Shown here: positions 1,483 through 59,660 of the stretch, in pieces
Layout: each line of letters begins with the position of its first letter
Numbering within the stretch: position 1 is the stretch's first letter
Assembly: GCA_041652815.1 (NCBI GenBank)
Contig: JBAZGN010000002.1
Location: 238,261 to 302,260 of the forward strand
DNA from: Candidatus Omnitrophota bacterium
GTDB taxonomy: Bacteria; Omnitrophota; Gorgyraeia; Duberdicusellales; 4484-171
DNA: 64,000 nucleotides
Direction of reading: 5' to 3'
The notes under the pieces: model-generated
Seen by the model: only the letters and a program-made list of their open reading frames with translations
The model's database searches: none
What the model was told of the DNA's origin: nothing
Program-made: the position numbers and the translations under genes

Positions 1483-1484
1483 CA

Positions 1485-1520
1485 TGTTGATAAGTTGATA
1501 GGTTTAAACTTATCAACATA
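1485..1520. terminator. Perfect palindrome ATGTTGATAAG-N13-CTTATCAACAT after lolD; hairpin or factor-binding dyad
   Basis: The 11-bp arms are exact reverse complements. It is followed by an AT-rich stretch and the ilvE RBS. Confidence 0.4.
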
Positions 1521-1558
1521 ATAACCTAATAACATAAAAACCATCAGGAGGTTTTATT

Positions 1559-2434: not shown

Positions 2435-2524
2435 GTTGTTATGTTGTTAAGTTATTAGGTTTATAGATTGTAATATATAACCTGTCAACCTATCAACATA
2501 TTAACCTATCAACCCAATAACCCA

Positions 2525-3010
2525 ATGCTTTGCGATATTTGCCACAAAAATATAGCTACTGTTCATCTTACAGAAATTATCAACGATAAAGTTGTTGAAA
2601 TGCACATCTGCCAGAATTGTACAAAAACAAAAACCCAGGAACTTAAGGAAAATTTAACTATACCGGAACTTTTAACTGGATTGATAAATACAACTGAAGC
2701 TCACAAAAAAGAAGCCCCGCTTAAATGCGAGTTTTGCGGTTTAACTTACGTAGATTTTAAGAAAAAAGCACGGTTTGGCTGTGGTAGGTGCTATTCGGTT
2801 TTCAAAGTGCAGATTCTGCCGCTGCTTAAAAAAATACATGGTTCACTTACTTACGCGGGAAAATCCGCAATTGATATGCAGAAAGATTCTTTTTCAAATA
2901 GCGTGAAGGAATTAAAAATAAGGCTTGAACGCGCTATAAAATTAGAAGAATACGAAGAAGCTGCGCGCCTACGGGACGAACTTAAAAAGCTGGAGCAAAA
3001 ACCCATCTAG
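2525..3010 (+). CDS. mcsA: McsA-like activator of protein arginine kinase (two CxxC zinc-finger pairs + C-terminal UVR motif)
   Basis: CDICH...HICQNC and CEFCG...CGRC pairs are present. The C-terminal EEYEEAARLRDELKKLE UvrB/C motif is present. It lies immediately upstream of mcsB-clpC. Confidence 0.7.
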   Translation: MLCDICHKNIATVHLTEIINDKVVEMHICQNCTKTKTQELKENLTIPELLTGLINTTEAHKKEAPLKCEFCGLTYVDFKKKARFGCGRCYSVFKVQILPLLKKIHGSLTYAGKSAIDMQKDSFSNSVKELKIRLERAIKLEEYEEAARLRDELKKLEQKPI

Positions 3011-3105
3011 ATGCTTGATGCTCGCTACTTGATGCTTGTAGAAAAAATAACGAGTATCTAGCATCTAGGATCGAGCATCAATGTTGAAGTTTTGGTATAA
3101 AAAAC

Positions 3106-4149
3106 ATGTTTGAAGAATTATTAAACAACAAAGATACGTGGTTAAGCGGAAAAGGGCCGTTTTCTGAAATAATTTTTTCATCCCGGGTGCGCCTGGCAAG
3201 AAACTTTTCAGATTATCCTTTCCCTCAACGTGCGACAATCATCCAAAAAGAAAAGATTTTAAAGAGCATGGAATCGGTGTGTACGAAAATCAGCACTTTT
3301 AAAAATATTATTTTTTTACGAATGGAAGAAGCTAGTGAAATAGACAGGCAGTTTCTTCTGGAGCGGCACCTTATAAGCCAGGAACATATGCATGTAGCAA
3401 AAGGTAAAGGGCTTATTCTATCATTAGATGAAAAAATCGCTCTTATGATAAACGAAGAGGACCATTTAAGGATGCAGGCCATGGCTTCAGGATTTGATTT
3501 GAAAAAGTGCTGGGAGGTAATCAACACAATTGATGACTCGATAGCTCAATTTGTAAATTTTTCATTTATGCCTAATTTAGGATATTTGACATCCTGCCCT
3601 ACTAATGTAGGAACCGCTCTTCGGGCCTCCTGCATGCTGCATTTGCCGGCGTTAACTTTTACAAAAAGAATAAATAAAGTTCTTGAGTTGCTTGCAAAGA
3701 TTTCTTTTGCTACAAGAGGATTTTTCGGCGAAGGCACACAGGCTCTTGGAGATTTTTTCCAGATTTCAAACCAGATAAGCCTTGGTTTATCAGAGCTGGA
3801 AGTTATAAATAATTTAGCTGGGGTAGTTAATCAGGTAAAAGAACAGGAAATTGATGCGCGTGAAATTTTATTAAAAAAACATAAGCTTGAGCTCGAAGAT
3901 AATGTCTGGCGGTCATACGGCGTTTTGCGTAATTGCCGCCTAGTTAGCAGCAAAGAAGCATTAAGCCATCTTTCTATATTGTCTTTGGGCCTGGATTTAG
4001 GTATAATTAATAGTATAAACAGAGCGCTGTTGAATAACTTGTTTCTAATGATCCAACCGGCTCATCTTCAGAAGATAGAAGCAAGAGTTTTAAAAGAAGA
4101 AGAAAGGGATTTTATAAGGGCTCAGATTTTAAGAGAGAAATTAAGTTAA
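3106..4149 (+). CDS. mcsB: Protein arginine kinase McsB (ATP:guanido phosphotransferase domain)
   Basis: The phosphagen-kinase signature CPTNVGTALRAS is present. The length is 347 aa. It sits in an operon context with mcsA and clpC. Confidence 0.85.
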   Translation: MFEELLNNKDTWLSGKGPFSEIIFSSRVRLARNFSDYPFPQRATIIQKEKILKSMESVCTKISTFKNIIFLRMEEASEIDRQFLLERHLISQEHMHVAKGKGLILSLDEKIALMINEEDHLRMQAMASGFDLKKCWEVINTIDDSIAQFVNFSFMPNLGYLTSCPTNVGTALRASCMLHLPALTFTKRINKVLELLAKISFATRGFFGEGTQALGDFFQISNQISLGLSELEVINNLAGVVNQVKEQEIDAREILLKKHKLELEDNVWRSYGVLRNCRLVSSKEALSHLSILSLGLDLGIINSINRALLNNLFLMIQPAHLQKIEARVLKEEERDFIRAQILREKLS

Positions 4150-4151
4150 AG

Positions 4152-4246
4152 ATAGAAGCGGATATCCGCGGATCTAAACGCGGATAAACGCAAGCTGATT
4201 GGCGTGCGTAAATCCGCGTAGATATCCGCGGCAATCCGCTTCTACT
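4152..4246. repeat. Intergenic dyad-symmetric element, family R1 (CGCGGAT words), copy A
   Basis: It is ~88% identical over ~90 bp to 59556..59645. It contains the ATCCGCGGAT palindrome and a nested AAACGCGGATAAACGC / GCGTAAATCCGCG inverted repeat. Confidence 0.8.
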
Positions 4247-4268
4247 AAAAAGGGAGGTAATAAGATCA

Positions 4269-6701
4269 ATGTTTAACAGATTTACAGAGAGAGCAAGAAA
4301 AGTTTTGGTTCTTGCGAAAGAAGAAGCAAGGCGTTTTAATCATGATTACATAGGCACAGAGCATATACTACTTGGTTTGGTAAGAGAAGGCGAGGGGGTG
4401 GCTTGTGCTGTTTTGCAGAATTTAGGTATTGATTTGGAGCGCTTGAGAATCGAAATAGAAAAACTGATTTCTCCCGGAAGCTCGGCTTCTGTTTTGGGAG
4501 AAATACCGTTTACACCGCGCGCCAAAAAAGCCTTAGAGCTTGCTGCTGAGGAAGCGCATAATCTGGGGCACAATTACATAGGCACAGAGCATATTCTCCT
4601 TGGCTTAATAAGGGAAGGCGAGGGGTTAGCTTCACAGGTCCTTTTTTCGTTAGGTGTTGATTTACGAAAAATAAGGGAAGAAATAGCAGCTCTTCTTGGA
4701 GGAGGCCAGTCTTATCAGGGGGCTGCCCCGCAGGCTACATCCAAAACCCCGGCATTAGATTCTTTCGGAAGAGATTTAACCAAACTTGCAAAAGAAGGCA
4801 AATTAGACCCGGTTATCGGCCGTAAAGGCGAGATAGAAAGAGTTATCCAGGTGCTTTCACGCAGGACCAAAAACAATCCTGTTCTTTTGGGTGAAGCTGG
4901 CGTAGGCAAAACTGCAATCGTAGAAGGTTTAGCTCAAAGCATAACACTTGGTGAGGTACCGGAGATTCTTCGGAATAAAAGAATAGTTGTGCTTGATTTG
5001 GCGCTGATGATAGCCGGAACAAAATACCGCGGGCAGTTTGAAGAAAGAATTAAAGCAGTAATGGAGGAAATAAAACGTTCCAAAGACGTTATTATTTTCA
5101 TAGATGAGTTGCATACTCTCGTTGGCGCAGGCGCAGCTGAAGGAGCGATAGATGCTTCAAATATTTTAAAGCCGTCCTTGTCCAGAGGGGAAATTCAGTG
5201 TATAGGTGCAACCACCCTTGATGAATACAGAAAATATATAGAAAAAGATGCGGCGCTCGAGAGGAGGTTTCAGCCGATAATCGTTGAGCCGAATTCTGTT
5301 GAAGAAACAGTTGAAATATTAAAAGGCCTACGCGATAAATACGAAGCGCACCACAGAGTTAAATTTTCTAATGAAGCAGTTGAGGCAGCATCAAAGCTTT
5401 CTGACAGGTATGTATCCGGAAGATTTTTGCCGGATAAAGCAGTTGATTTAATTGATGAGGCGGGTGCCCGCGCGCGTTTGGCGGTTTTGACGGCTCCGAA
5501 AGAGATAAAAGACCTTGAAGACAAATTAAATGGAATAGACCGCGAAAAAGAAGCTCTTATAAAACAGCAGGATTTTGAAGCAGCGGCACGGCTTCGTGAC
5601 GAAGAAAAAAAGCTACGGCTGCAGCTGGATTCTTTAAGAAAGGATTGGAGCAAAAAAAGAGACCAGATTATTCCGACTGTAAGCGAAGAAGATATTGCGC
5701 ATTTAGTTGCGCAAATTACAGGTATACCCATCTACAGGCTTGAAGAAAGAGAATCGGAAAAGCTTCTTAAGATTGAAGAAAAATTAACCGAAACAGTCAT
5801 CGGCCAGACAGAAGCCCTCCAGGCTATAGCGCGTTCTATCAGGCGTGCAAGGGCAGGGATAAAAGAGCCGCGCCGGCCAATTGGCTCATTTATGTTTCTC
5901 GGGCCAACCGGAGTAGGCAAGACTTTGCTTGCGCGGGCTCTTGCTGAACTTATGTTCGGTGATGAAGAGGCATTGCTTCAAATTGATATGAGCGAGTATA
6001 TGGAGAAATTCAATGTTTCAAGGCTTATAGGAGCCCCCCCCGGCTATGTAGGTTACGAGGAGGGAGGCCAGCTTACCGAACGTGTTAGAAGAAGGCCGTA
6101 TTCCGTAATTTTGCTTGATGAAATAGAAAAAGCCCATCCAGATGTGTTTAATTTACTTTTACAGATATTGGAAGAAGGCAGGCTTACCGACAGCTTCGCA
6201 AGAAAGATTGATTTTAGAAATACCATTTTGATAATGACTTCTAATGTTGGCGCTGAAATAATCAGGCAGCGTGGTTCCTTGGGTTTTAAGCCTCTGACAG
6301 AAGATATAGGCTACGAAGATATGAAGAACATGCTTCTTGATGAAGTAAAAAAAGCGTTTAAACCGGAATTTTTGAATAGGCTAGATGAGGTTATAGTTTT
6401 TAGGCCTCTTGGTAAAGAAGACCTTGGCAAGATAGTTGACATTGAGCTTTCCTACGTGAACAGCCGCCTGAAAGACCAGGGTGTTGAGGTCCAACTTTCC
6501 AATGATGCCAAGGATTTTTTTGTAGAGAAAGGTTTTGATCCGGTGTTTGGTGCGCGCCCTTTAAAGAGAGTTATACAAAGGTTTTTAGAGGATCCGTTGG
6601 CGGAAGATATAATAAAAGGAGAATTTACAGAGAGATTGAAAAAAGAAAAACCAGTGAAAATAAAAGTAACTAGAAAAGGCGAAGAATTGAAGTTTGAATG
6701 A
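4269..6701 (+). CDS. clpC: ATP-dependent Clp protease ATP-binding subunit ClpC
   Basis: Tandem Clp-N repeats, two AAA+ modules (GEAGVGKT and GPTGVGKT Walker A) and a UVR-like coiled coil between the AAA modules. The length is 810 aa. Confidence 0.9.
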
Positions 6702-7603
6702 AATTTTTTTTCCTTCTTGTATTATTATTGATAACTATACAGCCAGTAAGTTTAGCTTATAATTTTATAGAAATTGATTTAGTCAGGCGTAAGATTGTCT
6801 TAGACGATTTTTGTTTCGGTAATTACAATATAAACGCCGACGTCGGTTTTGATTTTAAGCAGGAAGACGGTTCTTTGATAGTTAATCTGGAAGGAAAAGA
6901 TATCGAGTTATTGCCCAATGGCCTTGATGATGCGTTATTTGGCAAAAGGCAGATGCAATATCTTTCGGCAAAATTGGTGAAGAAAGATAACTTACTTTTT
7001 GTAAATTATTTACGTTCGCCTCAGTTTCTGGCAAGAGGAAAAATTGATCTTGACAAAAACGAGCTACTTTTGGATGTAGATTGTAATTGGCGGGAAAATT
7101 CTTCTTTTATCGAAGGCGACATCGAAGGCAAGATAAAAATCTGGGGCAAGATAAATGATTTTCTTATAAACGGTTCATTGGATATAAAAAATGGCACATA
7201 CCAGGATGTAGATTTCTCGCGCCTGGTTTTTCATTTTTTGGGCAAACCCCCTTTGTTTACTTTAAGTGATTCTGAAATTGTGCTTCTCGATGGAAATATC
7301 TATAAAATAGAAGGCGTTATGAATTTAAGGGATTTTTCCAATATTTTGCCTAAAGCCGAATATATTTCTAAAAAGGTAAACCTCGGAGGATGGGAAATCC
7401 TATCTGAAGAAAAAACCAGCGTAGGGCTTAAGAAAAACGTTGATGATAATTTTGATATTCTTTTGGATACCTACGACAGAGAAGATAGCTCAATGAAAAC
7501 AGGCGCAGAGGTTCGTTACAAATTGCTGAATGATCAATTTTTACGTTTGCGCATGGAGGACGACAGGACTATCGTTGGCTTTGAGCGGCGAAAGGAATTC
7601 TAA
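6698..7603 (+). CDS. Hypothetical exported protein, translationally coupled to clpC (ATGA overlap)
   Basis: The N-terminal hydrophobic signal-like segment is [20 protein letters not shown]. No recognisable domain was found. Confidence 0.5.
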
Positions 7604-7624
7604 TTAAATTAAAACATAGGGGGT

Positions 7625-8428
7625 TTGGTGAGTGCCCGTTCAAAATTAAACGTTTTCGTAGTTGTTCCGTTCCTGAGTAATCTACAAATTTTATTCCAAT
7701 ACATAGGAAGTATAGCTTTTTTTATAGGAGATATTTTCTGGTGGCTTTTTGCCAAGAAGCGCGACCTTAAGGCAGTAAGGAGAGAAATTATCCTTATAGG
7801 CTTAAACAGCCTTCCGCTAGTTTCGCTTATTTCCTTTTTCGTTGGTATAATCATTGCCTTCCAAACCGCTTATCAGCTAAAGCAATTTTCTTCAGAAATT
7901 TATATAGCGTCTTTAGTTGCACTTTCTCTGGTAAGAGAGTTAGGGCCTGTACTCGGTTCGTTGATTGTAGCGGCAAGAAGCGGGGCTTCTATAACCGCCG
8001 GCATAGGCTCTATGAAAATAAGCGAGCAGGTGGACGCATTAGAAGCTTTTGCGGTTGAACCAATAGACTATCTGGTTGTTCCAAAGTTCCTGGCTTTAAT
8101 TATCGCTATGCCGATTTTGATTATTTACGCAGATTTTTTAGGTATTTTAGGCGGGTACCTAGTGGGCAGTTCAAAGTTTGGCATACCTTTTCAGTTTTAT
8201 TTTAAGCTTACTTTTGATGCGTTGAAAATAAAAGATATCGCCAGCGGGCTTATAAAGAGTGTTTGTTTTGGGGCCATAATTGCTTTTGTTTCTTCTTATG
8301 AAGGTTTCAAACCATTTTCTTCCACTGATGTTTCAGCGTCCGTAACGCATTCGGTAGTGCGCTCGTTTATTTTAATAATTATATGTGACTGTATTCTTAC
8401 GGCTTTATTTTATTTTATGTTCGTATAG
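7625..8428 (+). CDS. mlaE: MlaE-family ABC permease (phospholipid/lipid asymmetry transporter)
   Basis: The ~265 aa polytopic membrane protein is followed by an MlaF-like ATPase and an MCE-domain protein. The start is a non-ATG (TTG/GTG) codon. Confidence 0.7.
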   Translation: MVSARSKLNVFVVVPFLSNLQILFQYIGSIAFFIGDIFWWLFAKKRDLKAVRREIILIGLNSLPLVSLISFFVGIIIAFQTAYQLKQFSSEIYIASLVALSLVRELGPVLGSLIVAARSGASITAGIGSMKISEQVDALEAFAVEPIDYLVVPKFLALIIAMPILIIYADFLGILGGYLVGSSKFGIPFQFYFKLTFDALKIKDIASGLIKSVCFGAIIAFVSSYEGFKPFSSTDVSASVTHSVVRSFILIIICDCILTALFYFMFV

Positions 8429-8448
8429 AATAGTATTGCTTATTAAGA

Positions 8449-9222
8449 ATGAATGACATGGTAAAAGAAATGATAAAATTGGAAAATGTTTCCAAATATT
8501 TTGGAGATAAACAGGTATTAAAAGGAGTAAACCTTTCGGTAGGTAGAGGAGAAACATTTCTTATTATCGGAAGAAGCGGGGCTGGCAAGACAGTTCTTCT
8601 TAAAAACATAATAGGTTTACTTAGGCCTGACTCTGGTAAAGTTTTTATTGACGGTGTCGACTCAACCGGGCTTAACAATAAAGAGCTTGAAAAGGTGCGA
8701 TATCAGTTTGGCCTGGTTTTCCAAAGCGCGGCTTTATTTGATTTTCTGACTATTGATGAAAACGTAGGTTTTTTCCTTTATCAGCATACAAATCTTAAAA
8801 AAATTGAGATACGAAAAAAAGTAAAAGAAACTCTTGCTTTGGTAGGCTTAGAGGGGATAGAAGACCATTACCCTTATCAACTAAGCGGCGGTATGAAAAA
8901 AAGAGTGGCTATCGCAAGGGCAGTTATTTATAATCCGAAAATTATAATCTATGATGAGCCGACAACAGGCATTGACCCTATAGCGATTGACAAGGTGGTC
9001 TCGTTGATTGAAGATTTACACAAGCGGCTTTCAATTACCTCGCTGGTAGTCACGCATGACCTTGAGGTCGGTTTAAAAATTTCCGAGCGCATAGCATTTT
9101 TATTGGGTGGAAGGATAATTTTTCAGGGCAAAAAAGATGACCTGGAAAACATTAAGGATCCACGCGTGGTGCAGTTTTTGCATGGCTCTTCAGCCGGGCC
9201 GATAAAAGAGATGGAGGTATAA
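8449..9222 (+). CDS. mlaF: MlaF-like ABC ATP-binding protein
   Basis: Walker A GRSGAGKT, signature LSGGMKKR, Walker B IIYDEPTTGID. Confidence 0.75.
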   Translation: MNDMVKEMIKLENVSKYFGDKQVLKGVNLSVGRGETFLIIGRSGAGKTVLLKNIIGLLRPDSGKVFIDGVDSTGLNNKELEKVRYQFGLVFQSAALFDFLTIDENVGFFLYQHTNLKKIEIRKKVKETLALVGLEGIEDHYPYQLSGGMKKRVAIARAVIYNPKIIIYDEPTTGIDPIAIDKVVSLIEDLHKRLSITSLVVTHDLEVGLKISERIAFLLGGRIIFQGKKDDLENIKDPRVVQFLHGSSAGPIKEMEV

Positions 9223-9407
9223 AATTAGAGTATAATTATGTATTATTTTAATCTTTATTATCCCGCCTCGCCTGTATATGTGGTAAATTTTTCAAGAAAA
9301 ATTTACCACAAGCTCGGCGGGATCAATTCGCACTATCATTTTTTCTGCGCCCTGCCACCGAAGGTGGCGAGGCTTGAAAAAAATGATGTGCTCATTGAGG
9401 AGGTGTA
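9223..9407. repeat. Intergenic dyad element, family R6 (GTGGTAAATTT...AAATTTACCAC), copy A
   Basis: The inverted repeat GTGGTAAATTTTTCAAGAAAAATTTACCAC is followed by a GC hairpin CCACCGAAGGTGG. It is related to 57586..57742. Confidence 0.6.
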
Positions 9408-10115
9408 ATGGCTAACAATCTTTCCAACATAAAAAAGTATTTCTTGGAAATGAGAGTAGGTGCTTTTTTTATCGGCGCGCTAATTTTGCTTTTGATTACG
9501 CTCCTCTCGATAAGAGAAACCACTTTCTGGAAGGGGACCCGTCTTCTAAAAGTAAGATTTAATTTTGCAGAAGGGCTTCGCCCGGCTTCTCCCGTACGGT
9601 TTTGCGGTGTAGATGTTGGTGAGGTTAAGTATGTTGAAGTCAAACAAGATGATGATTTACAGCCGTATGTATTTGTCTATGTAAAGGTAAGTACAGATTC
9701 ACGCATACCGAAGAATTCTTATTTTTTTATAAACTCTTTAAGTTTATTCGGAGAAAAATACCTTGAAATAGTGCCTCCCGTGAAGCCGGAAGGATTTTTA
9801 ACCGGAGGAGAAGTGGTTGAAGGAATCTCTCCAACGCCACTTTTTAACGTAGTTACCAATTTTAACAAGACCATGGAAGAGGTGAATGCTTTCGTGAAAG
9901 ATGGAAAGCTTAAGGAATCATTTGCAAACACAATTACTAATGTAGAAAAGATAAGTGCCGATGTGCGGCAATTAATAGAAGACGTGAGAAACAAAAAAGG
10001 CACTCTCGGCAAATTTTTTTACGATGATTCTCTCTATACTAAGACGGAAGAATTCATTGACGAGTTAAAAGAGAATCCCTGGAAATTACTTTATAAGCCA
10101 AAAGATGCCAAATAG
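9408..10115 (+). CDS. mlaD: MCE-domain protein MlaD-like
   Basis: A single N-terminal TM is followed by an MCE domain. There is a strong RBS GAGGAGG. It is the third gene of the mlaEFD-like set. Confidence 0.7.
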   Translation: MANNLSNIKKYFLEMRVGAFFIGALILLLITLLSIRETTFWKGTRLLKVRFNFAEGLRPASPVRFCGVDVGEVKYVEVKQDDDLQPYVFVYVKVSTDSRIPKNSYFFINSLSLFGEKYLEIVPPVKPEGFLTGGEVVEGISPTPLFNVVTNFNKTMEEVNAFVKDGKLKESFANTITNVEKISADVRQLIEDVRNKKGTLGKFFYDDSLYTKTEEFIDELKENPWKLLYKPKDAK

Positions 10116-10230
10116 CATAGCGCATAGCGCAAAGCGCGAAGCGTGAGAAACAGGAAGCAGAAGTCTTTATTTTCTATGTTCGAAATCTGCTATTTGTTTT
10201 CTTCATTTTTTCCGCTATGCGCCATGCTCT
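10116..10230. repeat. Intergenic dyad element (CATAGCGC / GCGCTATG words), singleton in this window
   Basis: CATAGCGCATAGCGCAAAGCGCG lies at the 5' end. The 3' end is CCGCTATGCGCCATGCTCTATGCGCCATGCG, in the reverse-complement sense. Confidence 0.6.
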
Positions 10231-11580
10231 ATGCGCCATGCGATTATTATGTTTTATTGCTCCAATTGCGGATATAAATCGGTTAAGTGGTTAGGCAAAT
10301 GCCCTCTTTGCGAAGGATGGGAAACTTTTTTCGAAGAAAAGGAAGAGCTGCGTGATGGGGAAATTATTAAAGAAAAGCAAGCGCCTCGCCTTGTAAAAGA
10401 TATAGAAGGAAAAGATTATAACAGGATTGTAACAGGAATAGATGAGTTTGACCGCATAATCGGCGGAGGGCTCGTAAATGGAGAGATAATCCTTATAGGC
10501 GGAGAGCCGGGAGTCGGCAAATCTACCCTTCTTTTAGAAATTTCATCAGCCTTGGCGGCTAAAGCAAAAACTCTCTATGTGAGCGCCGAAGAATCTCCCC
10601 ATCAAGTATCCTTACGCGCAAACAGGCTTAATACCCAGGATAGCAATCTTTACATTCTGGGAGAAGATAATCTTGAAACTGTCTTCGGCTACATAAAAGA
10701 GCATGGTTTTAAATTCATAGTTATAGATTCGATACAAGTTGTCTGGAACGCGCGCTCCGAAGGGCCAAAAGGAAGCGTTTCGCAGCTTAAAGGCTCTGCC
10801 GATTATCTTACTCAGATTGCCAAGTCTTTGAATGTAGTTATTTTTGTCGTCGGCCATGTTACTAAAGAAGGAGTAATCGCAGGGCCTAAACTACTTGAGC
10901 ATATTGTTGACTGCGTTCTTTATTTTGAAGGGGAAATCCTTTCCAATTACAGGATTCTGCGCGCAGTTAAAAATCGATTCGGCCCTACCGGAGATATCGC
11001 GGTATTTGAAATGTTATCCAGCGGCCTTAAAGAAGTCAAAAAGACTACGGATCTTTTTCTTCCCCATAAAGATGAAGCTATTTCCGGAAGCTCCGTCGTC
11101 TGCGTTATAGAGGGGTTACGGCCTTTACTTATTGAGTTACAGTCCCTTGTGAGCAAGGCCAGTTTCGGGGTTGTTAGAAGGCGAAGCCTTGGGTTTGATT
11201 TTAACAGATTTTCTTTACTTATTGCCATAATCGAAAAGAGGCTTAAAATGTCTCTTTCGAGCGAAGATGTGTTTTTAAATGTCGCAGGAGGCCTTAAGAT
11301 AAATGATCCCGCTGCTGACCTGGGAGCAGTAATTGCAATAATTTCAAGTTACAAAGAAAAAGAGCCGCCTCTAAGCAGCGCATTTATTGCCGAGGTAGGC
11401 CTGGCGGGAGAGCTTCGACGTGTCAGCAATATAAATCTAAGGCTTAAAGAAATAGGAAGAGCGGGGTTTGCGCGCTGTTTTATCCCGGAAAGTAATTTAA
11501 AAGATGTCGACGCCAAGTTTAAATTTAAAATAGAAGGGTTTTCTTCTTTAAAAGAAGTTATAGAAAAAATCTGGAGGTAG
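10231..11580 (+). CDS. radA: DNA repair protein RadA/Sms
   Basis: N-terminal C4 zinc finger CSNCGY...CPLCEGW, RecA-like Walker A GEPGVGKST and a Lon-protease-like C-terminal domain. ATG 10249 is an alternative start. Confidence 0.9.
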   Translation: MRHAIIMFYCSNCGYKSVKWLGKCPLCEGWETFFEEKEELRDGEIIKEKQAPRLVKDIEGKDYNRIVTGIDEFDRIIGGGLVNGEIILIGGEPGVGKSTLLLEISSALAAKAKTLYVSAEESPHQVSLRANRLNTQDSNLYILGEDNLETVFGYIKEHGFKFIVIDSIQVVWNARSEGPKGSVSQLKGSADYLTQIAKSLNVVIFVVGHVTKEGVIAGPKLLEHIVDCVLYFEGEILSNYRILRAVKNRFGPTGDIAVFEMLSSGLKEVKKTTDLFLPHKDEAISGSSVVCVIEGLRPLLIELQSLVSKASFGVVRRRSLGFDFNRFSLLIAIIEKRLKMSLSSEDVFLNVAGGLKINDPAADLGAVIAIISSYKEKEPPLSSAFIAEVGLAGELRRVSNINLRLKEIGRAGFARCFIPESNLKDVDAKFKFKIEGFSSLKEVIEKIWR

Positions 11581-11582
11581 GT

Positions 11583-12560
11583 ATGAAAGGTTTATTTATC
11601 ATCAGGGCTTTCTTTGTTTTTATCTGTACGGCCGCAGCATTTAGGCTGGGTGACTTTAATCCGTTATTGGCAACCAGTATAGGTTTTGCAGTCGGTCTAG
11701 TAGTTGTATTCTTCGAAGTTTTCGCGAGAAAAATTTCCTTAAAAGGGCTTTCTTCGGCAGTTTTTGGGATATTTCTCGGACTGCTTGTTGCCTGGATTTT
11801 TAACAGGACACTTGAATTATTTCTCTTGCCTAAAGAAATTACTTACAATATGAAAGTGTTCGTTACGTTCATATTTATTTATTTGGGAGTTACATTAGGG
11901 CTTAAAGGAAGAGGCGAATTTAACCTTATCATTCCTTATGTTAAATTCCAGCGTAAGGAACTAAAGGAAGAAACTATTGTTGTAGATACAAGCATAATTA
12001 TTGATGCAAGGATTCTAGATATAGTTAAAACCGGATTTTTAGAAGCGCGGTTTATTGTGCCGCGGTTTGTTTTAAACGAACTTCAGGCGCTGGCCGATTC
12101 AACCGATCACATGAAGCGCCAGAAGGGAAAACGCGGCATTGAAGTGTTGCACTCTCTTAAAAATGAACCCAATATAGAAATTGACATTTACAATGAAGAC
12201 GTAGAGGGGGTTAAAAGCGTTGACGAAAAGGTGGTTGTGCTTGCGCAAACTCTCGATGCAAAGATTATTACAACCGACTACAATTTAAACCGCATAGCCC
12301 AGTTACAGGGTATAAAAGTTTTAAATATTAATGACCTGGCAAATGCGCTAAAACCTACATTCGTAGCTGGCGAAAAGTTTTCCATAAAACTTATAAAAGA
12401 AGGGAAAGAACATAACCAGGCAGTTGGATACCTTGAAGACGGCACCATGGTGGTAGTAGAAAACGCTAAATGGCTAATTGGTAAAAATGTAGATATAGAA
12501 GTAACATCAGTTTTGCAAAGCCCAAGCGGTCGAATAGTATTTACGAGATTGGCAAGTTAA
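11583..12560 (+). CDS. PIN + TRAM domain membrane protein (YacL-like)
   Basis: N-terminal TM helices, a PIN-like central domain and a C-terminal TRAM-like beta domain. Its synteny after radA matches Bacillus yacL. Confidence 0.65.
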   Translation: MKGLFIIRAFFVFICTAAAFRLGDFNPLLATSIGFAVGLVVVFFEVFARKISLKGLSSAVFGIFLGLLVAWIFNRTLELFLLPKEITYNMKVFVTFIFIYLGVTLGLKGRGEFNLIIPYVKFQRKELKEETIVVDTSIIIDARILDIVKTGFLEARFIVPRFVLNELQALADSTDHMKRQKGKRGIEVLHSLKNEPNIEIDIYNEDVEGVKSVDEKVVVLAQTLDAKIITTDYNLNRIAQLQGIKVLNINDLANALKPTFVAGEKFSIKLIKEGKEHNQAVGYLEDGTMVVVENAKWLIGKNVDIEVTSVLQSPSGRIVFTRLAS

Positions 12561-12767
12561 AGAGATAATAGAGCCCATAAATCTTAGGTTACTCGCCTGT
12601 CACGGCAGGCAGGTTACGTAGGCCACAGGCTTTCAGCCTGCTGGGTAGGTTACGAAGGTTACATAAATAAAGTGATTTTAATGTAACTTCCGTAACTTTC
12701 GTAACTTAATTCTTCCGCCGAAGGCGAAAGAATTAACGTAACCTCCGTAACATTTATTGTAACGAAT
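12561..12767. repeat. Intergenic dyad element, family R2 (GGTTACG / CGTAACC words), copy A
   Basis: It has multiple GGTTACG words, then AATGTAACTTCCGTAACTTTCGTAACTT, with the embedded GC hairpin CCGCCGAAGGCG. It is related to 44449..44593. Confidence 0.7.
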
Positions 12768-13439
12768 ATGCCATCTAATGTCGGTGCTGTAATAGTTTGC
12801 GCAGGCAAGGGTAAGCGTTTAGGTGCTGATAAAGCTGCAATTAAATTAGAAGGTAAACCCCTCTTTTATCATACCTACAAGCTTTTTAAGGACATAAAGG
12901 CGATAAAACAAATCGTTATTGTCCTAAGAAAAAAGAATTTTACCCTTGCGCAAAAACTTATCAAAGACAAAAGAGTTTCTTTAGCTGAAGGAGGCGTGCG
13001 CCGTCAGGATTCTGTTTTTGCAGGGCTATCCCGATTGGATAAAAATATAGGCTATGTGCTTATTCACGACGGCGCGAGGCCTTTTACGCCAAGAGCGGTA
13101 ATAGTTGAAATGCTAAAGAATGTTAAAAAATACCCCGCAGTTATTTGCGCAGTTAAATCCAGAGACACATTAAAAGGCATTCGTGGTAATTTTGTAAAAA
13201 ATACTCTTAATAGAAATGATATAGCGATGGTCCAGACTCCCCAGGCTTTTAAGAAGAGCCTGTTGTTGGATGCATATCAAAAATTTAACCACAGGAATAC
13301 TTTTGACGATGCCGAGCTTTTTGAGTTTATGAAGAAAAAAGTAAGAATAGTAAATGGAAGCCACCGTAATATAAAAATTACCTATCCGCAGGATATGGTT
13401 TTGGCAAAAGCACTATTGAAGACGAAAGGTACCACGTAA
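12768..13439 (+). CDS. ispD: 2-C-methyl-D-erythritol 4-phosphate cytidylyltransferase
   Basis: The N-terminal AVIVCAGKGKRLG nucleotide-binding motif is present. The ~220 aa length fits, and it is followed by ispF. Confidence 0.8.
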   Translation: MPSNVGAVIVCAGKGKRLGADKAAIKLEGKPLFYHTYKLFKDIKAIKQIVIVLRKKNFTLAQKLIKDKRVSLAEGGVRRQDSVFAGLSRLDKNIGYVLIHDGARPFTPRAVIVEMLKNVKKYPAVICAVKSRDTLKGIRGNFVKNTLNRNDIAMVQTPQAFKKSLLLDAYQKFNHRNTFDDAELFEFMKKKVRIVNGSHRNIKITYPQDMVLAKALLKTKGTT

Positions 13440-13523
13440 CAGGTATCACGTAGCACGTCCTGACGTATGTAATTTTTTAAAGACGTGATACTTGATACGT
13501 GTTACCTGATACACTAAAGAATT
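13440..13523. repeat. Intergenic dyad element (ATCACGT / ACGTGAT words)
   Basis: The repeated words ATCACGTAGCACGTCCTGACGT ... GACGTGATACTTGATACGTG lie between ispD and ispF. Confidence 0.5.
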
Positions 13524-14000
13524 ATGAAAGGATACAGGGTTGGCTTAGGTTTCGATGTTCACCGGTTTTCCAAAAAAAAGAGGCCGCTCGTTTTAGGTGG
13601 TGTCGAGATTGCCTCTAATTTTGGCCTTGAGGCTGTGTCTGACGGAGACGTCCTTTTGCATGCGGCGTCTGACGCTATTTGCGGAGCATGCGCCCTTGGT
13701 GATATAGGCGATTATTTCCCGCCACAAAATATAAAATCAAAAGGTATAGATAGCAGAAAAATTGTGCAGTTTATATTGAAAAAAATCAAAAATAAATTTA
13801 ATATCATTAATATCGATGCAACAATAATTACCGAGAAACCAAAGCTATCCGTGCACAAAAAAAGGATTTTAACGTCCCTTCGTGAAATTTTTCAGACAAA
13901 AGCAATAAATGTTAAAATAAAATCTAAGGAAGGATTGGATATTTTGGGTTCAAAGAAAGCTATTTCCTGTTTAGCTCTTGCAGTAGTTAAAAAATGCTAA
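13524..14000 (+). CDS. ispF: 2-C-methyl-D-erythritol 2,4-cyclodiphosphate synthase
   Basis: GLGFDVHRF and the HSDGDV-like motifs are present. The length is 158 aa. Confidence 0.85.
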   Translation: MKGYRVGLGFDVHRFSKKKRPLVLGGVEIASNFGLEAVSDGDVLLHAASDAICGACALGDIGDYFPPQNIKSKGIDSRKIVQFILKKIKNKFNIINIDATIITEKPKLSVHKKRILTSLREIFQTKAINVKIKSKEGLDILGSKKAISCLALAVVKKC

Positions 14001-15379
14001 AAATAAACAATACTTTAAGCCGAAAGAAAGAGCATTTCACCCCGCAAAACCCGCCGCATGTTTCAATGTATACCTGCGGAGTAACCGTATATGATGACTG
14101 CCACATCGGCCATGCCAGAAGCCTCTATATTTTTGATGTAATGCGCAGGTACTTAAAATACAGAGGATATGACGTTAAATTTGTGCGTAATATCACTGAT
14201 ATAGATGACAAAATCATAAACCGGGCTAATGAATTAAAAGTAAACTGGCAGGAATTGGTTAAAAAATATATTGAGAGATACTACGAAGATTTAAACGCAC
14301 TTGGTATTGACAAGGCCGATTTTGAACCGAGAGCCACGGAAAATATCCCGGATATGATTAAGTATATACAAAAGCTTATTGATAAAGATTTTGCTTATGT
14401 CGCCGCAGGCGATGTATATTTTAATGTCAGAAAATTCAATGAATACGGAAAGCTTTCCGGGCAAAAGATTGAGGAAATGGAGGCAGGTGTAAGAATATCT
14501 CCCACTGAACTTAAAAAAGACCATTTAGATTTTGCTCTCTGGAAGGCATCAAAGGAAAATGAACCTTTCTGGGTAAGTCCATGGGGTAATGGCAGGCCTG
14601 GCTGGCACATAGAGTGTTCGGTGATGAGCCAGAAGTTTTTAAAAACCGAGACGCTTGATATACATGCGGGAGGGCGCGACCTTGTTTTTCCGCACCACGA
14701 GAATGAGCTTGCGCAGGCTGAGGCGTGCACCGGCAAGCCTTTTGCAAAATACTGGATACATCACGGGCTTTTAACAATTAACTCACAAAAGATGTCAAAA
14801 TCATTAGGTAATTTTGTAACGATAAAGGATTTTATAAATAAATATAAGAATATTAATTTACTAAAACTATTTTTCTTATCAGCACACTATTCACACCCCA
14901 TAGATTACAACCAAGAAAAGATAGAGGAAACAAAAAAACAAAAAGAAAGCCTAGATAGTTTTTTTAATACAGTGTATATATTACATAGAGGAGAAGCAGA
15001 ACCAACTATTTCCGACAAAGACAAGAATAAGATTGATAGTATTTTTAGTAAGTTTGAAGAAGCTATGGACAATGATTTCAATACAGCTCAAGCATTAAGT
15101 TGTTTGTTTGAATTACGAGATACAGCTCTCAGTTTTTCAAATCTGAAGTCTTTTGAATACGCACGTACAAAAATGAAAGATTTATTCAACATTTTCAATT
15201 TAAGTGTGCAGCCGCAGCTTGAGTTATTGGAAGAACAATATGAGGACCAATATCAACGAGAAAAATTACGCCAACTAAGAGATTTTGATTCAGCAGATAA
15301 AATAAGAAAGAGATGGGAAGAGCTAGGTTATATTTTAGAGGATCATAAAGGAGCGACTGCCTGGAGGAAAAAAGAATGA
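13994..15379 (+). CDS. cysS: Cysteine--tRNA ligase
   Basis: The class I HIGH motif (CHIGHARS) and KMSKS motif (KMSKSLGN) are present. The length is 461 aa. Confidence 0.9.
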   Translation: MLKINNTLSRKKEHFTPQNPPHVSMYTCGVTVYDDCHIGHARSLYIFDVMRRYLKYRGYDVKFVRNITDIDDKIINRANELKVNWQELVKKYIERYYEDLNALGIDKADFEPRATENIPDMIKYIQKLIDKDFAYVAAGDVYFNVRKFNEYGKLSGQKIEEMEAGVRISPTELKKDHLDFALWKASKENEPFWVSPWGNGRPGWHIECSVMSQKFLKTETLDIHAGGRDLVFPHHENELAQAEACTGKPFAKYWIHHGLLTINSQKMSKSLGNFVTIKDFINKYKNINLLKLFFLSAHYSHPIDYNQEKIEETKKQKESLDSFFNTVYILHRGEAEPTISDKDKNKIDSIFSKFEEAMDNDFNTAQALSCLFELRDTALSFSNLKSFEYARTKMKDLFNIFNLSVQPQLELLEEQYEDQYQREKLRQLRDFDSADKIRKRWEELGYILEDHKGATAWRKKE

Positions 15380-16014
15380 GGACAAAATTCATAACCTTTG
15401 AAGGATTGGAAGGCAGCGGAAAGAGTAGTGTGATTAACTTTTTAGAAAAACTCTTGAAAGCCAAAGGGTTTTCGGTAGTCGTATTTCGCGAGCCCGGCTC
15501 AACTGCGGTAGGTGAGAAAATACGCCAGATTCTTTTAGATAAAGCAAATAAAAAATTAAGCCGCCACACAGAACTGCTTTTATATTTGGCGGCCCGGACA
15601 CAGTTAATTGAAGAAAAACTTATGGGCGCTTTTAAAAAATATGATTTTATAATTTGCGACCGTTTTTTTGACTCAACTTTAGTGTATCAGGGTTATGCCT
15701 TAGGCTTGGGCGCTATAGTTGAGAAATCAGTTCAAATGTTTTCTCTTGGCATTACGCCGGATTTAACTCTTGTGTTAGATGTTTCTGCCCGCGAAGGCTT
15801 AAAAAGAATAAAAAATAAAGACCGTATAGAATCGCGGCCAATTGATTTTCATAATAAATTAAGGAAGGGTTATCTTGCGCTTGCTAAAAAGTATCCTGAC
15901 AGAATAAAAGTTATTAATGCACAGGCTAATCTGGAAGAAATTTACAAGCGGACGGAAAAGGCCCTTGTGAATAAATTCAAGTTTATCCGCCTTCGCCCTT
16001 TATTAAGGCACTAA
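15376..16014 (+). CDS. tmk: Thymidylate kinase
   Basis: The P-loop FITFEGLEGSGKSS is present. The ~210 aa length fits, and it overlaps the cysS stop. Confidence 0.85.
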   Translation: MRTKFITFEGLEGSGKSSVINFLEKLLKAKGFSVVVFREPGSTAVGEKIRQILLDKANKKLSRHTELLLYLAARTQLIEEKLMGAFKKYDFIICDRFFDSTLVYQGYALGLGAIVEKSVQMFSLGITPDLTLVLDVSAREGLKRIKNKDRIESRPIDFHNKLRKGYLALAKKYPDRIKVINAQANLEEIYKRTEKALVNKFKFIRLRPLLRH

Positions 16015-16104
16015 TGACTATGGTGGGCTTCCTCCTACGCTAAAGCTTCGGAGGACAAGTCGGCGGATGTCACTATATCGGTGATTTATTAAGGTGTTCC
16101 ATAA

Positions 16105-16896
16105 ATGCAAACTCAGAATAAAATATTAAATTATTTTTCTTTACTTAAAAAGCGGGGCATAATAGGAAAATCTTATCTTTTTATAGGAGATGATTTTTCT
16201 ATTGTGAAAGATATCGCAAAGCTCATAAACTGTACAAATGACGCGGAACATTTTTGTAATACTTGCTGGGATTGCAGTAATATAGAGCGTTATGCTCATC
16301 CTGATCTTTTTATGCTTAAACCCGAGACTCTGACAATTACGATTGAAAATATAAAACAAGCCCAGCAATTCCTGCGGCTCAAAAGTTTTCGCGCGCAAAA
16401 AAAGGTTCTTGTAATTGAGGATGCCCAAAATATGGGAGAAGCGTCTGCCAACGCTTTTTTAAAAACACTGGAAGAGCCGCCAAAAAATTCTTTGATCGCT
16501 ATCTGCGCTTCAAGAATAGACAGCCTTATACCGACCATAGTTTCGCGTTGCAATAAGATTTTTCTTCCTCCTCAAGAAAATAAAACTGAAGATTCCAGGT
16601 TCACTCAAATTTTAGGTTTTCTAAAAGGAGAGCGCCCGGTTTTTAAAGATAGGAAGGATTTTTTATCATTTATTTGGAGCCTTAATCTTGTGCTCAGAGA
16701 CGCTTTCCTGTTTTCATTAGGCAGAAACAATCGTTTGCTTAGGTTTAGTGATTGTGAGATAATCCTTGAAAACATAAGGATAAAAAATGTAAACACTTAT
16801 TGCGCGGCCATAAAAGATATCCTTGAAATTTATGCTAACGGCGCAACAATTAATGAAAATTTAGCTTTAAATTTAATAAGGGAGAGGATTTTATGA
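16105..16896 (+). CDS. holB: DNA polymerase III delta-prime subunit
   Basis: It has an AAA+ clamp-loader-like fold with a degenerate Walker A. Its conserved position after tmk supports the call. Confidence 0.65.
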   Translation: MQTQNKILNYFSLLKKRGIIGKSYLFIGDDFSIVKDIAKLINCTNDAEHFCNTCWDCSNIERYAHPDLFMLKPETLTITIENIKQAQQFLRLKSFRAQKKVLVIEDAQNMGEASANAFLKTLEEPPKNSLIAICASRIDSLIPTIVSRCNKIFLPPQENKTEDSRFTQILGFLKGERPVFKDRKDFLSFIWSLNLVLRDAFLFSLGRNNRLLRFSDCEIILENIRIKNVNTYCAAIKDILEIYANGATINENLALNLIRERIL

Positions 16897-17798
16897 GAGT
16901 AGCTTCAGTGCGCCTACGGGAATCAGGGCAAATCGTAACCTATAGGATAGAAGAAGGCGTAAACGTTAACGATTATGTGATAATTGAAGCCGATAGGGGT
17001 ACTGATTATGGAGAGGTGGTAGAAGTAAGTGATATCTCTGAACCCCAAAAAGAAGAAGCACAATCTTCAGTTAAAAGCATAGTAAGAAAGGTTTCTAGCC
17101 AGGATATGGAACGTATAAAACAGAATGAAGCTGATGCTAAAGAGGCAATGCGCCAGTGTTCAAGAAAGATAGGTGAGTATAAACTATCGATGAAATTGGT
17201 TGATGCTGAATATTCTTTTGACAGGAAAAAGATAGTTTTTTATTTTACTGCCGAAGGCCGGGTAGATTTCAGGGAGCTTGTTAAAGACCTGGCAAAGGTT
17301 TTTAAGATAAGGATTGAGATGCGCCAGATAGGGGTCAGGGACGAGGCTCGTCTTTTCGGAGGAATTGGGCCTTGCGGGCAATCTCTTTGCTGTGTAAAAT
17401 TTTTAAGAAATTTTGAAGCGGTAAGTATGAAAATGGCAAAAACACAGAAGTTGCCGCTTAGTTCCGGAAAAATATCAGGCATATGCGGAAGGCTTATGTG
17501 TTGCCTTTTCTACGAATATAAAACCTACAAGGATTTAGCGAAGGGGCTTCCCAAGGAAGGAGATACCATAGATACACCGCAAGGAAAAGGTAAGGTTACT
17601 TCAGTAAATATTCTAAAAAGGCTTGTATGCGCGGAACTTGAAGACGGCAGAATAGAAAAAATTTCCTTTGGTTGCCCTTGCGAAGCCGGAGCTTCTGCGA
17701 CGTGCAAAGCATCACAGAAAGGGGGCTTTGAGGTTCCCCAGAAAGGCGGTTCTGAAGCGCCTGAGAGAGAGGACGCCGAAGATAAAAAAGAGAAATAG
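16893..17798 (+). CDS. ricT: PSP1 C-terminal domain protein (RicT/YaaT-like)
   Basis: The Cys cluster GPCGQSLCC...CGRLMCC is typical of the PSP1/YaaT family. It lies immediately after holB as in Bacillus. Confidence 0.7.
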   Translation: MRVASVRLRESGQIVTYRIEEGVNVNDYVIIEADRGTDYGEVVEVSDISEPQKEEAQSSVKSIVRKVSSQDMERIKQNEADAKEAMRQCSRKIGEYKLSMKLVDAEYSFDRKKIVFYFTAEGRVDFRELVKDLAKVFKIRIEMRQIGVRDEARLFGGIGPCGQSLCCVKFLRNFEAVSMKMAKTQKLPLSSGKISGICGRLMCCLFYEYKTYKDLAKGLPKEGDTIDTPQGKGKVTSVNILKRLVCAELEDGRIEKISFGCPCEAGASATCKASQKGGFEVPQKGGSEAPEREDAEDKKEK

Positions 17799-17831
17799 CC
17801 CAGGCGTTTATAAAAAGCAGATTTCCAATTG

Positions 17832-18578
17832 ATGTTTATAGATGCTCACTGCCATATTAATGGTCTTGACCCGGAAGAAAGAAATAATATTGCTTCTACC
17901 CGCCGCAGCGGTTATATATTCATAGATTCAAGTATTAATTTTCAAAGTACTTTAAATTCTTTACAATTAAGCGATAAATATCCTTATATTTATTCGGCTA
18001 TAGGGTTTCATCCATTTTCTGTAAAAGAATTCAATGAAAGTACGATTTCAGATTACGAAAAAGTTTTGCACCAGAACAAAAAAATTGTTGCAATAGGAGA
18101 AATAGGCCTTGATGAAACAGCCAAAACATCGCACGAAGCCCAAGAAAAAATTCTTAAAGTATTTTTCCAGCTGGCGAAAAATGTTAATTTGCCTGTACTT
18201 ATTCACAATAGGTTAAAGGAACCGGAAATTTTTGATATCCTCGATGATTTTTTTACATCTTACGAAAAGGTTGTTTTCCATTGCTTTTCTTATGATTATG
18301 GAATGTTGCAGAGAATAACCGAAAGAGGCGGCTATGTTTCTTTTTCCCTCAACATACTCAGAAAAAAGAAAGACATAATCGATTCGCTGATAAAGTGCCC
18401 TCTGGAAAATATTTTACTTGAGACTGATTCGCCGTATATGAAGATTGACGGACACGCATCGAGCCCTCTTGACATAGAAGCGGTTTATTCTTTTGCCGCA
18501 GCAATAAAAAACTTAAAACTGCAAGAATTAAAAGAAGCCGTATGCTCAAACGCGAATAAAGTATTTTCATTCAAATGA
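17832..18578 (+). CDS. tatD: TatD-family metal-dependent DNase/hydrolase
   Basis: The N-terminal MFIDAHCHI motif is present. The ~250 aa length fits. Confidence 0.8.
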   Translation: MFIDAHCHINGLDPEERNNIASTRRSGYIFIDSSINFQSTLNSLQLSDKYPYIYSAIGFHPFSVKEFNESTISDYEKVLHQNKKIVAIGEIGLDETAKTSHEAQEKILKVFFQLAKNVNLPVLIHNRLKEPEIFDILDDFFTSYEKVVFHCFSYDYGMLQRITERGGYVSFSLNILRKKKDIIDSLIKCPLENILLETDSPYMKIDGHASSPLDIEAVYSFAAAIKNLKLQELKEAVCSNANKVFSFK

Positions 18579-47097: not shown

Positions 47098-47144
47098 CAT
47101 TTATAATAAATTGATACCTAAGCTATTTGTAATTTAAGATAGCA

Positions 47145-47282: not shown

Positions 47283-47297
47283 GTGTAATCATAATTA

Positions 47298-59645: not shown

Positions 59646-59660
59646 AGCAAGGAAAAACAA

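Follow-up and report, generated by a model that had tools for sequence, protein, structure and literature searches.

A complete gene set for the protein arginine kinase McsB, the McsA protein that activates it, and the unfoldase ClpC lies near the start of a 64,000-nucleotide stretch from a Candidatus Omnitrophota bacterium (assembly GCA_041652815.1, contig JBAZGN010000002.1, positions 238,261 to 302,260 of the forward strand), hereafter the window. Very probably, the mcsA-mcsB-clpC module is part of a gene string conserved across the phylum, has neither a layer of control by the repressor CtsR nor a dedicated operator, and is flanked by intercistronic hairpin repeats which an initial annotation had proposed as substitute operators. 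Gene identities were taken from the listing of open reading frames (ORFs) and from Pfam and NCBIfam profile searches. Relatives were found by scanning a collection that holds a single genome for each prokaryotic species for McsB, and their loci are labelled L001 and so on.

The mcsA-mcsB-clpC module and its gene string

The string extends from position 186 to 18578, entirely on the plus strand, and comprises the following genes in this order:

186..818, plus strand: lolC/E-like permease, C-terminal part, truncated by the window start (Pfam FtsX 1.2e-18; NCBIfam TIGR02212 lolCE 2.6e-47)
811..1482, plus strand: lolD-like ABC ATPase, 8-nt overlap with the permease gene (Pfam ABC_tran 1.1e-32)
1559..2434, plus strand: ilvE, branched-chain aminotransferase, class IV (Pfam Aminotran_4 2.4e-54; NCBIfam NF006185, 454 bits against a cut-off of 363)
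2525..3010, plus strand: mcsA, McsB activator (Pfam UVR; NCBIfam McsA 7.2e-37; PDB 8wtb_B 2.4e-27)
3106..4149, plus strand: mcsB, protein arginine kinase (Pfam ATP-gua_Ptrans PF00217 1.1e-62; NCBIfam NF002194, 417 bits against a cut-off of 385)
4269..6701, plus strand: clpC, class I AAA+ unfoldase (Pfam; two Clp_N repeats, short UVR-type middle domain, LGF loop)
6698..7603, plus strand: ORF of 301 aa (no Pfam or NCBIfam family; TamB-like all-beta fold)
7625-8428, plus strand: mlaE (Pfam MlaE 5e-72)
8449-9222, plus strand: mlaF (Pfam ABC_tran 1e-34)
9408-10115, plus strand: mlaD (Pfam MlaD 2e-15)
10231..11580, plus strand: radA (Pfam KaiC-type ATPase, zinc ribbon, ChlI-like C-terminus)
11583..12560, plus strand: yacL-like PIN/TRAM protein (Pfam PIN and TRAM)
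12768-13439, plus strand: ispD (Pfam IspD 1.9e-55)
13524-14000, plus strand: ispF (Pfam YgbB 1.4e-49)
13994..15379, plus strand: cysS (Pfam tRNA-synt_1e 5.7e-132)
15376-16014, plus strand: tmk (Pfam)
16105-16896, plus strand: holB (Pfam)
16893-17798, plus strand: ricT/yaaT, PSP1/RicT (Pfam; NCBIfam RicT_YaaT_fam, 292 bits against a cut-off of 70)
17829-18578, plus strand: tatD (Pfam)

The genes named in the initial annotation were all recovered at their positions by the ORF listing and the profile searches. The contig L082 is of the same population, with 32 mismatches to the window over 6193 nt, and adds 7 kb upstream of the window; there the counterpart of the truncated permease is full-length, with 384 aa and the domains MacB_PCD and FtsX.

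McsB matches the McsB structures from Bacillus and Geobacillus (PDB 8wtb_A, 6tv6_A and 6fh1_A) at about 1e-90 over its full length, residues 10-346, and a precomputed match to PF27454 (McsB_C) covers the McsB-specific C-terminal domain. McsA contains four CxxC motifs (C3/C6, C29/C32, C68/C71 and C86/C89), equivalent to two zinc sites, followed by a UVR-like C-terminus, and its match to B. subtilis McsA (8wtb_B) spans residues 1-158. The presence of an arginine phosphorylation system, as first annotated, is supported by the NF002194 score, by PDB 8wtb and by the CxxC motifs. ClpC has 810 aa and aligns with B. subtilis ClpC (3j3s) over residues 1-786 with 1045 bits, whereas ClpB reaches 796 bits. 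The two GTEH motifs of its N-domain are identical to those of 3j3s; they contain the glutamates (Glu32 and Glu106 in B. subtilis) that contact phospho-arginine in the Bacillus protein. The LGF tripeptide aligns with VGF, the ClpP-docking [LIV]-G-[FL] loop of B. subtilis ClpC.

From these conserved features of McsB, McsA and ClpC we infer the mechanism described for Bacillus. McsA-activated McsB would phosphorylate arginines on damaged proteins, the N-domain of ClpC would read the phospho-arginine mark, and ClpC would unfold the substrate, which presumably passes to a ClpP whose gene lies elsewhere. The kinase and protease activities of the module are predictions in this sense.

Lineage and phylum-wide gene order

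According to the initial annotation, the lineage could not be assigned from this stretch. Protein identities contradict this. McsB is 92, 91 and 86% identical to its counterparts in three metagenome-assembled genome (MAG) loci of Candidatus Omnitrophota (L001, L002 and L003), and the neighbouring proteins that were tested are 73-97% identical to those of Omnitrophota MAG loci. The next-nearest McsB sequences, at about 45% identity, belong mostly to Omnitrophota and Planctomycetota; Aerophobetes, Elusimicrobiota and MAGs with a Clostridia label contribute a few. Judged by its proteins, the genome is that of a Candidatus Omnitrophota, a phylum which NCBI places within the Planctomycetes-Verrucomicrobia-Chlamydiae (PVC) group, and not that of a Firmicutes relative. 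Two alternatives had been offered, a deep-branching relative of Firmicutes and another phylum with ancestral synteny; the former falls and the latter stands, with Omnitrophota as the phylum.

About 48 Omnitrophota-type loci, with McsB identities as low as 43%, share the order lolC/E-lolD-ilvE-mcsA-mcsB-clpC-(301-aa ORF)-mlaEFD-radA-yacL-ispD-ispF-cysS-tmk, each time with ilvE upstream of mcsA. On this comparison of loci, the gene order is a property of the phylum and not of a single genome. Loci from Planctomycetota, Phycisphaerae and Aerophobetes keep mcsA-mcsB and sometimes have clpC nearby, while the extended order is gone. Two loci from MAGs labelled Clostridia (L058 and L063) read truA-mcsA-mcsB-tilS, with no ctsR and with clpC not adjoining; their taxonomic label is possibly unreliable.

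The resemblance of the string to the ctsR-to-yabD region of B. subtilis is real. The latter region is origin-proximal and holds mcsA-mcsB-clpC, radA-yacL-ispD-ispF-cysS and tmk-holB-yaaT-tatD in similar orders. The likeness had been described as a Bacillus-type gene order. The order itself was confirmed, but four genes (the 301-aa ORF, mlaE, mlaF and mlaD) stand between clpC and radA, and Escherichia coli K-12 has tmk-holB-ycfH in the same order, ycfH encoding a TatD-family hydrolase, so that part of the order is not specific to Bacillus. The reported lack of disA, yaaQ/yaaR, yabA and gltX/cysE in the region was borne out: the spacers are too short to hold any of them (radA-yacL 2 nt, tmk-holB 90 nt, ricT-tatD 30 nt, with ispF and cysS overlapping).

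A deep-branching diderm relative of the Firmicutes, comparable to Negativicutes or Halanaerobiales, might have inherited such an order vertically, and the agreement of the three blocks with the B. subtilis order would fit that origin. Yet all close relatives are Omnitrophota MAGs from a phylum of the PVC group, the McsB sequences at about 45% identity point mostly to Omnitrophota and Planctomycetota, and the tmk-holB-tatD block extends to E. coli; this origin is therefore extremely improbable. A horizontal transfer of mcsA-mcsB-clpC, perhaps together with radA-yacL-ispDF, from a Firmicute to an ancestor of Omnitrophota or of the PVC group, with ctsR lost or never transferred, is another explanation, which we regard as unlikely. 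The CtsR/McsAB literature treats the system as Gram-positive, and the Planctomycetota loci retain mcsA-mcsB only. For Chlamydia, horizontal acquisition of mcsAB has been suggested in view of flanking tRNA genes (PMC10128030). In the Omnitrophota, on the other hand, the block is fixed across the phylum down to 43% McsB identity, alternates with mlaEFD and the TamB-like ORF, and adjoins lolCDE. With such fixation among genes of a diderm envelope, any transfer would be ancient. With a GC content of 0.38-0.44, the block is unremarkable in comparison to the rest of the window.

Local absence of CtsR and probable expression of the module

CtsR was searched for with the B. subtilis sequence, which was validated by Pfam (9e-37 and 1.5e-26). 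Neither tblastn nor phmmer returned a CtsR gene in the window and 80 mcsB loci (1.18 Mb in total), and none is present in the 7 kb upstream of the window on L082. L058 and L063, chosen as ctsR-positive controls, lack the gene and provide no control. CtsR boxes (A/GGTCAAA-N3-A/GGTCAAA, at most 3 mismatches) were matched 23 times in the window, against 28.5 expected by chance. None of the matches falls into the spacers 1483-1558 and 2435-2524; the nearest, at 4134-4150 with 3 mismatches, lies almost wholly within the end of mcsB. The window contains no CIRCE element. The observation that ilvE, not ctsR, stands upstream of mcsA was thus borne out for the window, and in the relatives, too, the search gave no CtsR gene beside mcsB. 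Lack of ctsR at the operon is confirmed as the rule in Omnitrophota and the other non-Firmicute loci.

The module appears to work without the CtsR repressor layer and without a dedicated operator in front of mcsA. Most likely, transcription of mcsAB-clpC continues from the upstream genes lolCDE-ilvE, or the module is co-expressed with them. In the complete-genome locus L018, mcsA follows ilvE after 16 nt, and no spacer from position 1706 to mcsB exceeds 49 nt, most being 3-17 nt long. The region has 50 promoter-like matches, with 46.7 expected, which is the level of chance.

Periodic hairpin repeats in the spacers

Spacers of 50-400 nt were surveyed, 30 in the window, 241 in Omnitrophota-type loci and 139 in loci of other phyla. 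Folding more stable than that of shuffled sequences (z < -3) was obtained for 53% of the window spacers and 44% of those in Omnitrophota-type loci, in comparison to 14% in other phyla; strong short-period repetition amounted to 20, 19 and 2%, respectively. A period of 7 nt prevailed among the periodic Omnitrophota spacers (35 of 45), and the window shows lags of 7, 8, 9 and 10. The hairpins are built of tandem copies of a word of 7-10 nt followed by inverted copies. The words vary by locus and, at the same locus, by genome. The elements in the window are:

1472..1539, no strand: palindrome with octamer period, built on the word GTTGATAA/G (lag 8; the 5' arm matches at 0.8)
2435..2513, no strand: octamer-periodic palindrome forming an imperfect hairpin of 30 pairs (lag 8; each arm matches at about 0.7; z = -5.0 against shuffles)
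3013..3084, no strand: heptamer-periodic palindrome between mcsA and mcsB (lag 7, 26 pairs, z = -3.4)
4153..4244, no strand: 92-nt palindromic repeat between mcsB and clpC, word CGCGGAT, 43-nt arms (-58 kcal/mol)
9262..9407, plus strand: structured element with a P1-P2-P3 domain, ATCAATTC, a hairpin and GCTCATTGAGGAGG, ending in the Shine-Dalgarno sequence of mlaD
10119..10230, no strand: heptamer-periodic palindrome (CATAGCG...) between mlaD and radA (lag 7, 39 pairs, z = -3.5)
12611..12744, no strand: nested periodic palindromes between yacL and ispD (GGTTACG, lag 9), the same word recurring at 44451-44584
13427-13508, no strand: heptamer-periodic palindrome between ispD and ispF
22083-22170, 26283-26405, 27159-27319, 32084-32284, 33606-33661, 35434-35527, 44451-44584 and 46361-46426: further periodic palindromes

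Periodic palindromes were seen also in spacers of L002-L036. Some words recur in at least two places in the window and in other genomes (GTTGATA, GGTTACG, GCGGTTTTG, ATCGGTTGCG and CTAGAT). When every hairpin was compared with all loci by blastn, only the 92-nt CGCGGAT element had copies, which indicates that most of the hairpins are not copies of one mobile family. Rfam gave no match at its gathering thresholds anywhere in the window, and at E-value thresholds the long hairpins drew spurious matches to miRNA precursors. We found no literature on intergenic palindromes of this type in Omnitrophota.

Both sites proposed as operators are hairpins of this kind. The palindrome reported at 1485..1520 exists, displaced by one base: a perfect 13-bp stem with the arms ATGTTGATAAGTT at 1484-1496 and AACTTATCAACAT at 1507-1519, which begins 2 nt past the lolD stop codon. 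The dyad-rich spacer 2435..2524 likewise holds a true hairpin, which follows directly on the ilvE stop codon and consists of octamers and then their reverse complement, as at 1472-1539. A role as operators, in contrast, is not upheld for either site. The ilvE-mcsA spacer measures 8 nt in the closest relative, L001, and 25 nt or less (2-25 nt) in 15 of 45 relatives including L001. The hairpins of other relatives at this junction use unrelated words, for example CAGATAG, CAGCTTTC, AACCAGA, ATGACGA, CAGAAGT, CGCGGATA and GAAGATA. The lolD-ilvE spacer carries a different element in L001 and L002 and measures merely 21 nt in L003. Between mcsA and mcsB, too, the relatives have unrelated sequence or 9-21 nt.

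Two other explanations of these hairpins were weighed. One takes the two sites as operators of a different dimeric repressor which would control mcsAB-clpC in place of the missing CtsR. Its strength is that both sites are true inverted repeats adjoining the module, that 2435-2524 folds far better than its shuffles and that a sigma-70-like match overlaps 1495-1522. An operator should be conserved at its promoter, and the sequences at the orthologous ilvE-mcsA and lolD-ilvE positions are not: L001 and 14 more relatives have hardly any spacer before mcsA, the others use unrelated words, periodic hairpins occupy about half of the window spacers beside unrelated genes, and the promoter-like matches do not exceed chance. 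The operator substitutes at 1484-1519 and 2435-2524 were therefore rejected, and control by such a repressor is highly improbable. The second explanation regards the hairpins as terminators that make mcsA, mcsB and clpC single-gene units with their own promoters. Hairpins that start directly after stop codons and reach -58 kcal/mol would suit it, and some phyla terminate at hairpins without U-tracts. No T-run follows the hairpins, however, and a terminator scan found no site at 1484-1519, 2435-2513, 3013-3084 or 4153-4244, so that canonical intrinsic terminators were rejected. Space for promoters is scant, with 11 nt from the 2435-2513 hairpin to the mcsA start and some 20 nt in front of each of mcsB and clpC, and relatives that lack hairpins at the same junctions keep the gene order. 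We consider terminators unlikely.

Several observations weigh against an intact, co-expressed module without CtsR. The strong hairpins between mcsA, mcsB and clpC (-25 and -58 kcal/mol) could split it into separate transcripts. The search for ctsR covered the mcsB loci and the L082 flank, and a ctsR at a distance in the genome is possible. mcsA has no recognisable Shine-Dalgarno sequence, with CCCAATAACCCA before its ATG (2514-2527); the neighbouring genes mostly have AGGAGG, while mcsA of L002 and L003 likewise lacks the motif. With 127 bits, McsA scores under the Bacillus equivalog cut-off of 210 and must be seen as a divergent member. Within the 64-kb window there is no clpP gene and, by Pfam, no gene for a low-molecular-weight protein tyrosine phosphatase of the YwlE type; ClpP, the phosphatase and any regulator would lie outside it, and the pathway as seen is incomplete.

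Under the preferred reading of the hairpins as intercistronic repeats, they most likely act on the transcript, by protection of 3' ends, processing or partial termination, or they are selfish DNA. Their distribution suggests that such RNA hairpins or selfish repeats arise and decay quickly.

Dispersed and Shine-Dalgarno-carrying elements

The 92-nt element has a second copy in the window at 59551-59646, which is 89% identical to 4153-4244, and two copies in L009 at 7311-7403 and 8215-8307, at other junctions and 91-92% identical to 4153-4244. Altogether, the copies share 86-92% identity, occupy non-orthologous junctions in two genomes and fold at about -50 to -58 kcal/mol. As dispersed, nearly symmetric copies they resemble a REPIN, a hairpin formed by repetitive extragenic palindromic (REP) sequences, or a miniature inverted-repeat transposable element. 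At a distance of about 7 kb from window position 1, on the upstream side, L082 encodes the C-terminal part of a Y1_Tnp transposase of the IS200/RAYT type (REP-associated tyrosine transposase) at 1-349, with the motif RYIHLNP, and a perfect 18-bp hairpin directly follows this gene. Y1_Tnp is a possible mobiliser of the palindromic repeats.

The structured element before mlaD represents a separate type, with a three-helix 5' domain, a conserved TTAATTC, a variable hairpin and GCTCATTAAGGAGG, and it ends 5-9 nt before the start codon. Copies were located in L001 (about 1853-1983 and about 4520-4706), L002 (about 860-969) and L011 (about 18560-18664), and variants in L003, L005, L012 (mlaF-mlaD) and L020 (radA-yacL). 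The gene that follows differs by genome and may be mlaD, ilvE, clpC or yacL. Compensatory changes affect 11 of the 25 predicted pairs among five type-1 copies. Rfam has no match for 9262-9407 at either gathering or E-value thresholds.

Taken further, the periodic palindromes and the Shine-Dalgarno-carrying element might together constitute a system, undescribed so far and present throughout the phylum, of intercistronic RNA hairpins with rapid renewal, which processes or stabilises very long polycistronic transcripts and has its own generating mechanism. This is a tentative proposal that is more likely wrong than right. Each palindrome would then consist of 3-8 tandem words of 7-10 nt, specific to its locus and drawn from a vocabulary shared between genomes, and would be made, for example, by repeat expansion with template switching or by Y1-transposase activity. 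If the proposal is true, mcsAB-clpC and similar stress modules of the phylum would be controlled post-transcriptionally and not by operators. A genome-wide occurrence in these small genomes would bear on the expression of long co-directional strings in uncultured nanobacteria and on the origin of repeats. The periodic hairpins came to light as a by-product and are undescribed; they deserve genome-wide attention more than the module without ctsR does.

Envelope genes and other features of the window

Beyond the string, the window holds a pair of genes for lipopolysaccharide export permeases:

24092..26255, minus strand: lptG/lptF pair (Pfam LptF_LptG 4e-57 and 7e-77)

Given the Lol, Mla and LptF/LptG genes, the organism can safely be taken to have a diderm envelope, as had been concluded before. 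The outer-membrane toolkit claimed at the same time stood in part: LolC/E, LolD, MlaEFD and LptF/LptG were matched by profiles, but no OEP/TolC or recognisable beta-barrel outer membrane protein family was matched by Pfam in the scanned ORFs of at least 100 aa. The sole candidates for the TolC-like and beta-barrel proteins of that claim are a DUF3034 protein (39442-40299) and the TamB-like all-beta protein at 6698-7603.

This 301-aa ORF begins before clpC has ended, with 4 nt shared at the clpC stop, as in 12 of 13 compared relatives. The TamB profile matches it at merely E = 0.07. Its homologues fall into 46 clusters, and all clusters with an organism name are from Omnitrophota. In an AlphaFold2 model (pLDDT, predicted local distance difference test, 81.7) an N-terminal helix precedes an all-beta body, for which the best fold match in the PDB is TamB (9xdd_B; probability 0.99, E = 0.012). 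The protein may belong with the downstream mlaEFD genes.

All called genes lie on the plus strand with the exception of three (24092-27121), and the GC skew is positive across the window (1-64000). Both are consistent with a position on one replichore with a leading-strand gene bias. Two tandem paralogues of the Thi4-family thiazole synthase (47347-48147 and 48202-48975) are followed by thiM and thiE. Upstream of the tandem thi4 genes, at 47143-47295, lies a thiamine pyrophosphate riboswitch seen only at E-value thresholds (E = 4e-06), its 46.6 bits being below the Rfam gathering threshold of 54.3. It spans 153 nt in comparison to 105 positions in the model, which makes an insertion probable.

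Comparison with known systems

The closest known analogue of the periodic hairpins are the short tandemly repeated repetitive (STRR) sequences of cyanobacteria. These are tandem 7-bp repeats between genes of one operon which can form hairpins and have been proposed to act in transcript stability or translational coupling (PMC2670836). The likeness is one of form only, namely tandem 7-nt words in spacers with the capacity to fold. STRR sequences occur in another phylum and use other words, whereas the Omnitrophota hairpins combine a regular repeat with an inverted repeat, have periods of 7-10 nt and, unlike STRR, show nearly one word per locus and a rapid turnover between close genomes. REP sequences and REPINs, which are mobilised by RAYT transposases, resemble the dispersed, nearly symmetric 92-nt hairpin, and a Y1_Tnp gene lies about 7 kb upstream. 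Most of the periodic hairpins differ from them in being confined to a single locus and not forming one family, a GTAG or CGTC tag is at most tentative, and the association of transposase and repeat is one of proximity alone.

The E. coli cluster tmk-holB-ycfH shares tmk, holB and the TatD-family hydrolase in matching order, but no PSP1/RicT gene separates holB from the hydrolase gene there, and pabC-mltG lie upstream of the cluster. In Bacillus, the radA-to-cysS and tmk-to-tatD blocks are far apart; in the Omnitrophota they are fused, with cysS overlapping tmk.

Chlamydia trachomatis, a diderm of the PVC group like the Omnitrophota, possesses orthologues of both ClpC and McsAB, the latter encoded in a separate mcsAB operon, with no CtsR-type control reported (PMC10128030). 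Its ClpC-ClpP complex (ClpCP2P1) degrades in vitro only arginine-phosphorylated casein (PMC10128030). As McsAB and ClpC without ctsR have thus been described already, the Omnitrophota module is not new in kind; it is useful context and would not surprise specialists who browse genome annotations. In Chlamydia, mcsAB lies apart from clpC and is flanked by tRNA genes (PMC10128030), in contrast to the Omnitrophota, in which the three genes stand together in a long conserved string. We found no literature that links Omnitrophota with McsB or ClpC. Together with the work on Chlamydia, a complete mcsA-mcsB-clpC operon fixed across a diderm phylum, and mcsA-mcsB common in Planctomycetota, suggest that degradation by phospho-arginine and ClpC is not a Gram-positive speciality. 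In view of this distribution, vertical descent within the PVC group has to be taken seriously as an alternative to the horizontal acquisition proposed for Chlamydia. The role of McsB in tagging proteins for degradation would then be separable from its role in regulating CtsR.

The clpC operon of B. subtilis (ctsR-mcsA-mcsB-clpC) shares with the Omnitrophota module the order mcsA-mcsB-clpC, McsB including its C-terminal domain and the zinc sites of McsA. The ClpC proteins agree in their length of 810 aa, the short UVR-type middle domain, both GTEH motifs and a putative ClpP-docking [LIV]GF loop. The Omnitrophota operon differs from that of Bacillus in the lack of a ctsR gene or CtsR box, in having ilvE and lolCDE upstream, in the long repeat hairpins that separate mcsA, mcsB and clpC, and in its diderm host. 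Whereas radA directly follows clpC in Bacillus, the TamB-like ORF and mlaEFD occupy that place in the Omnitrophota.

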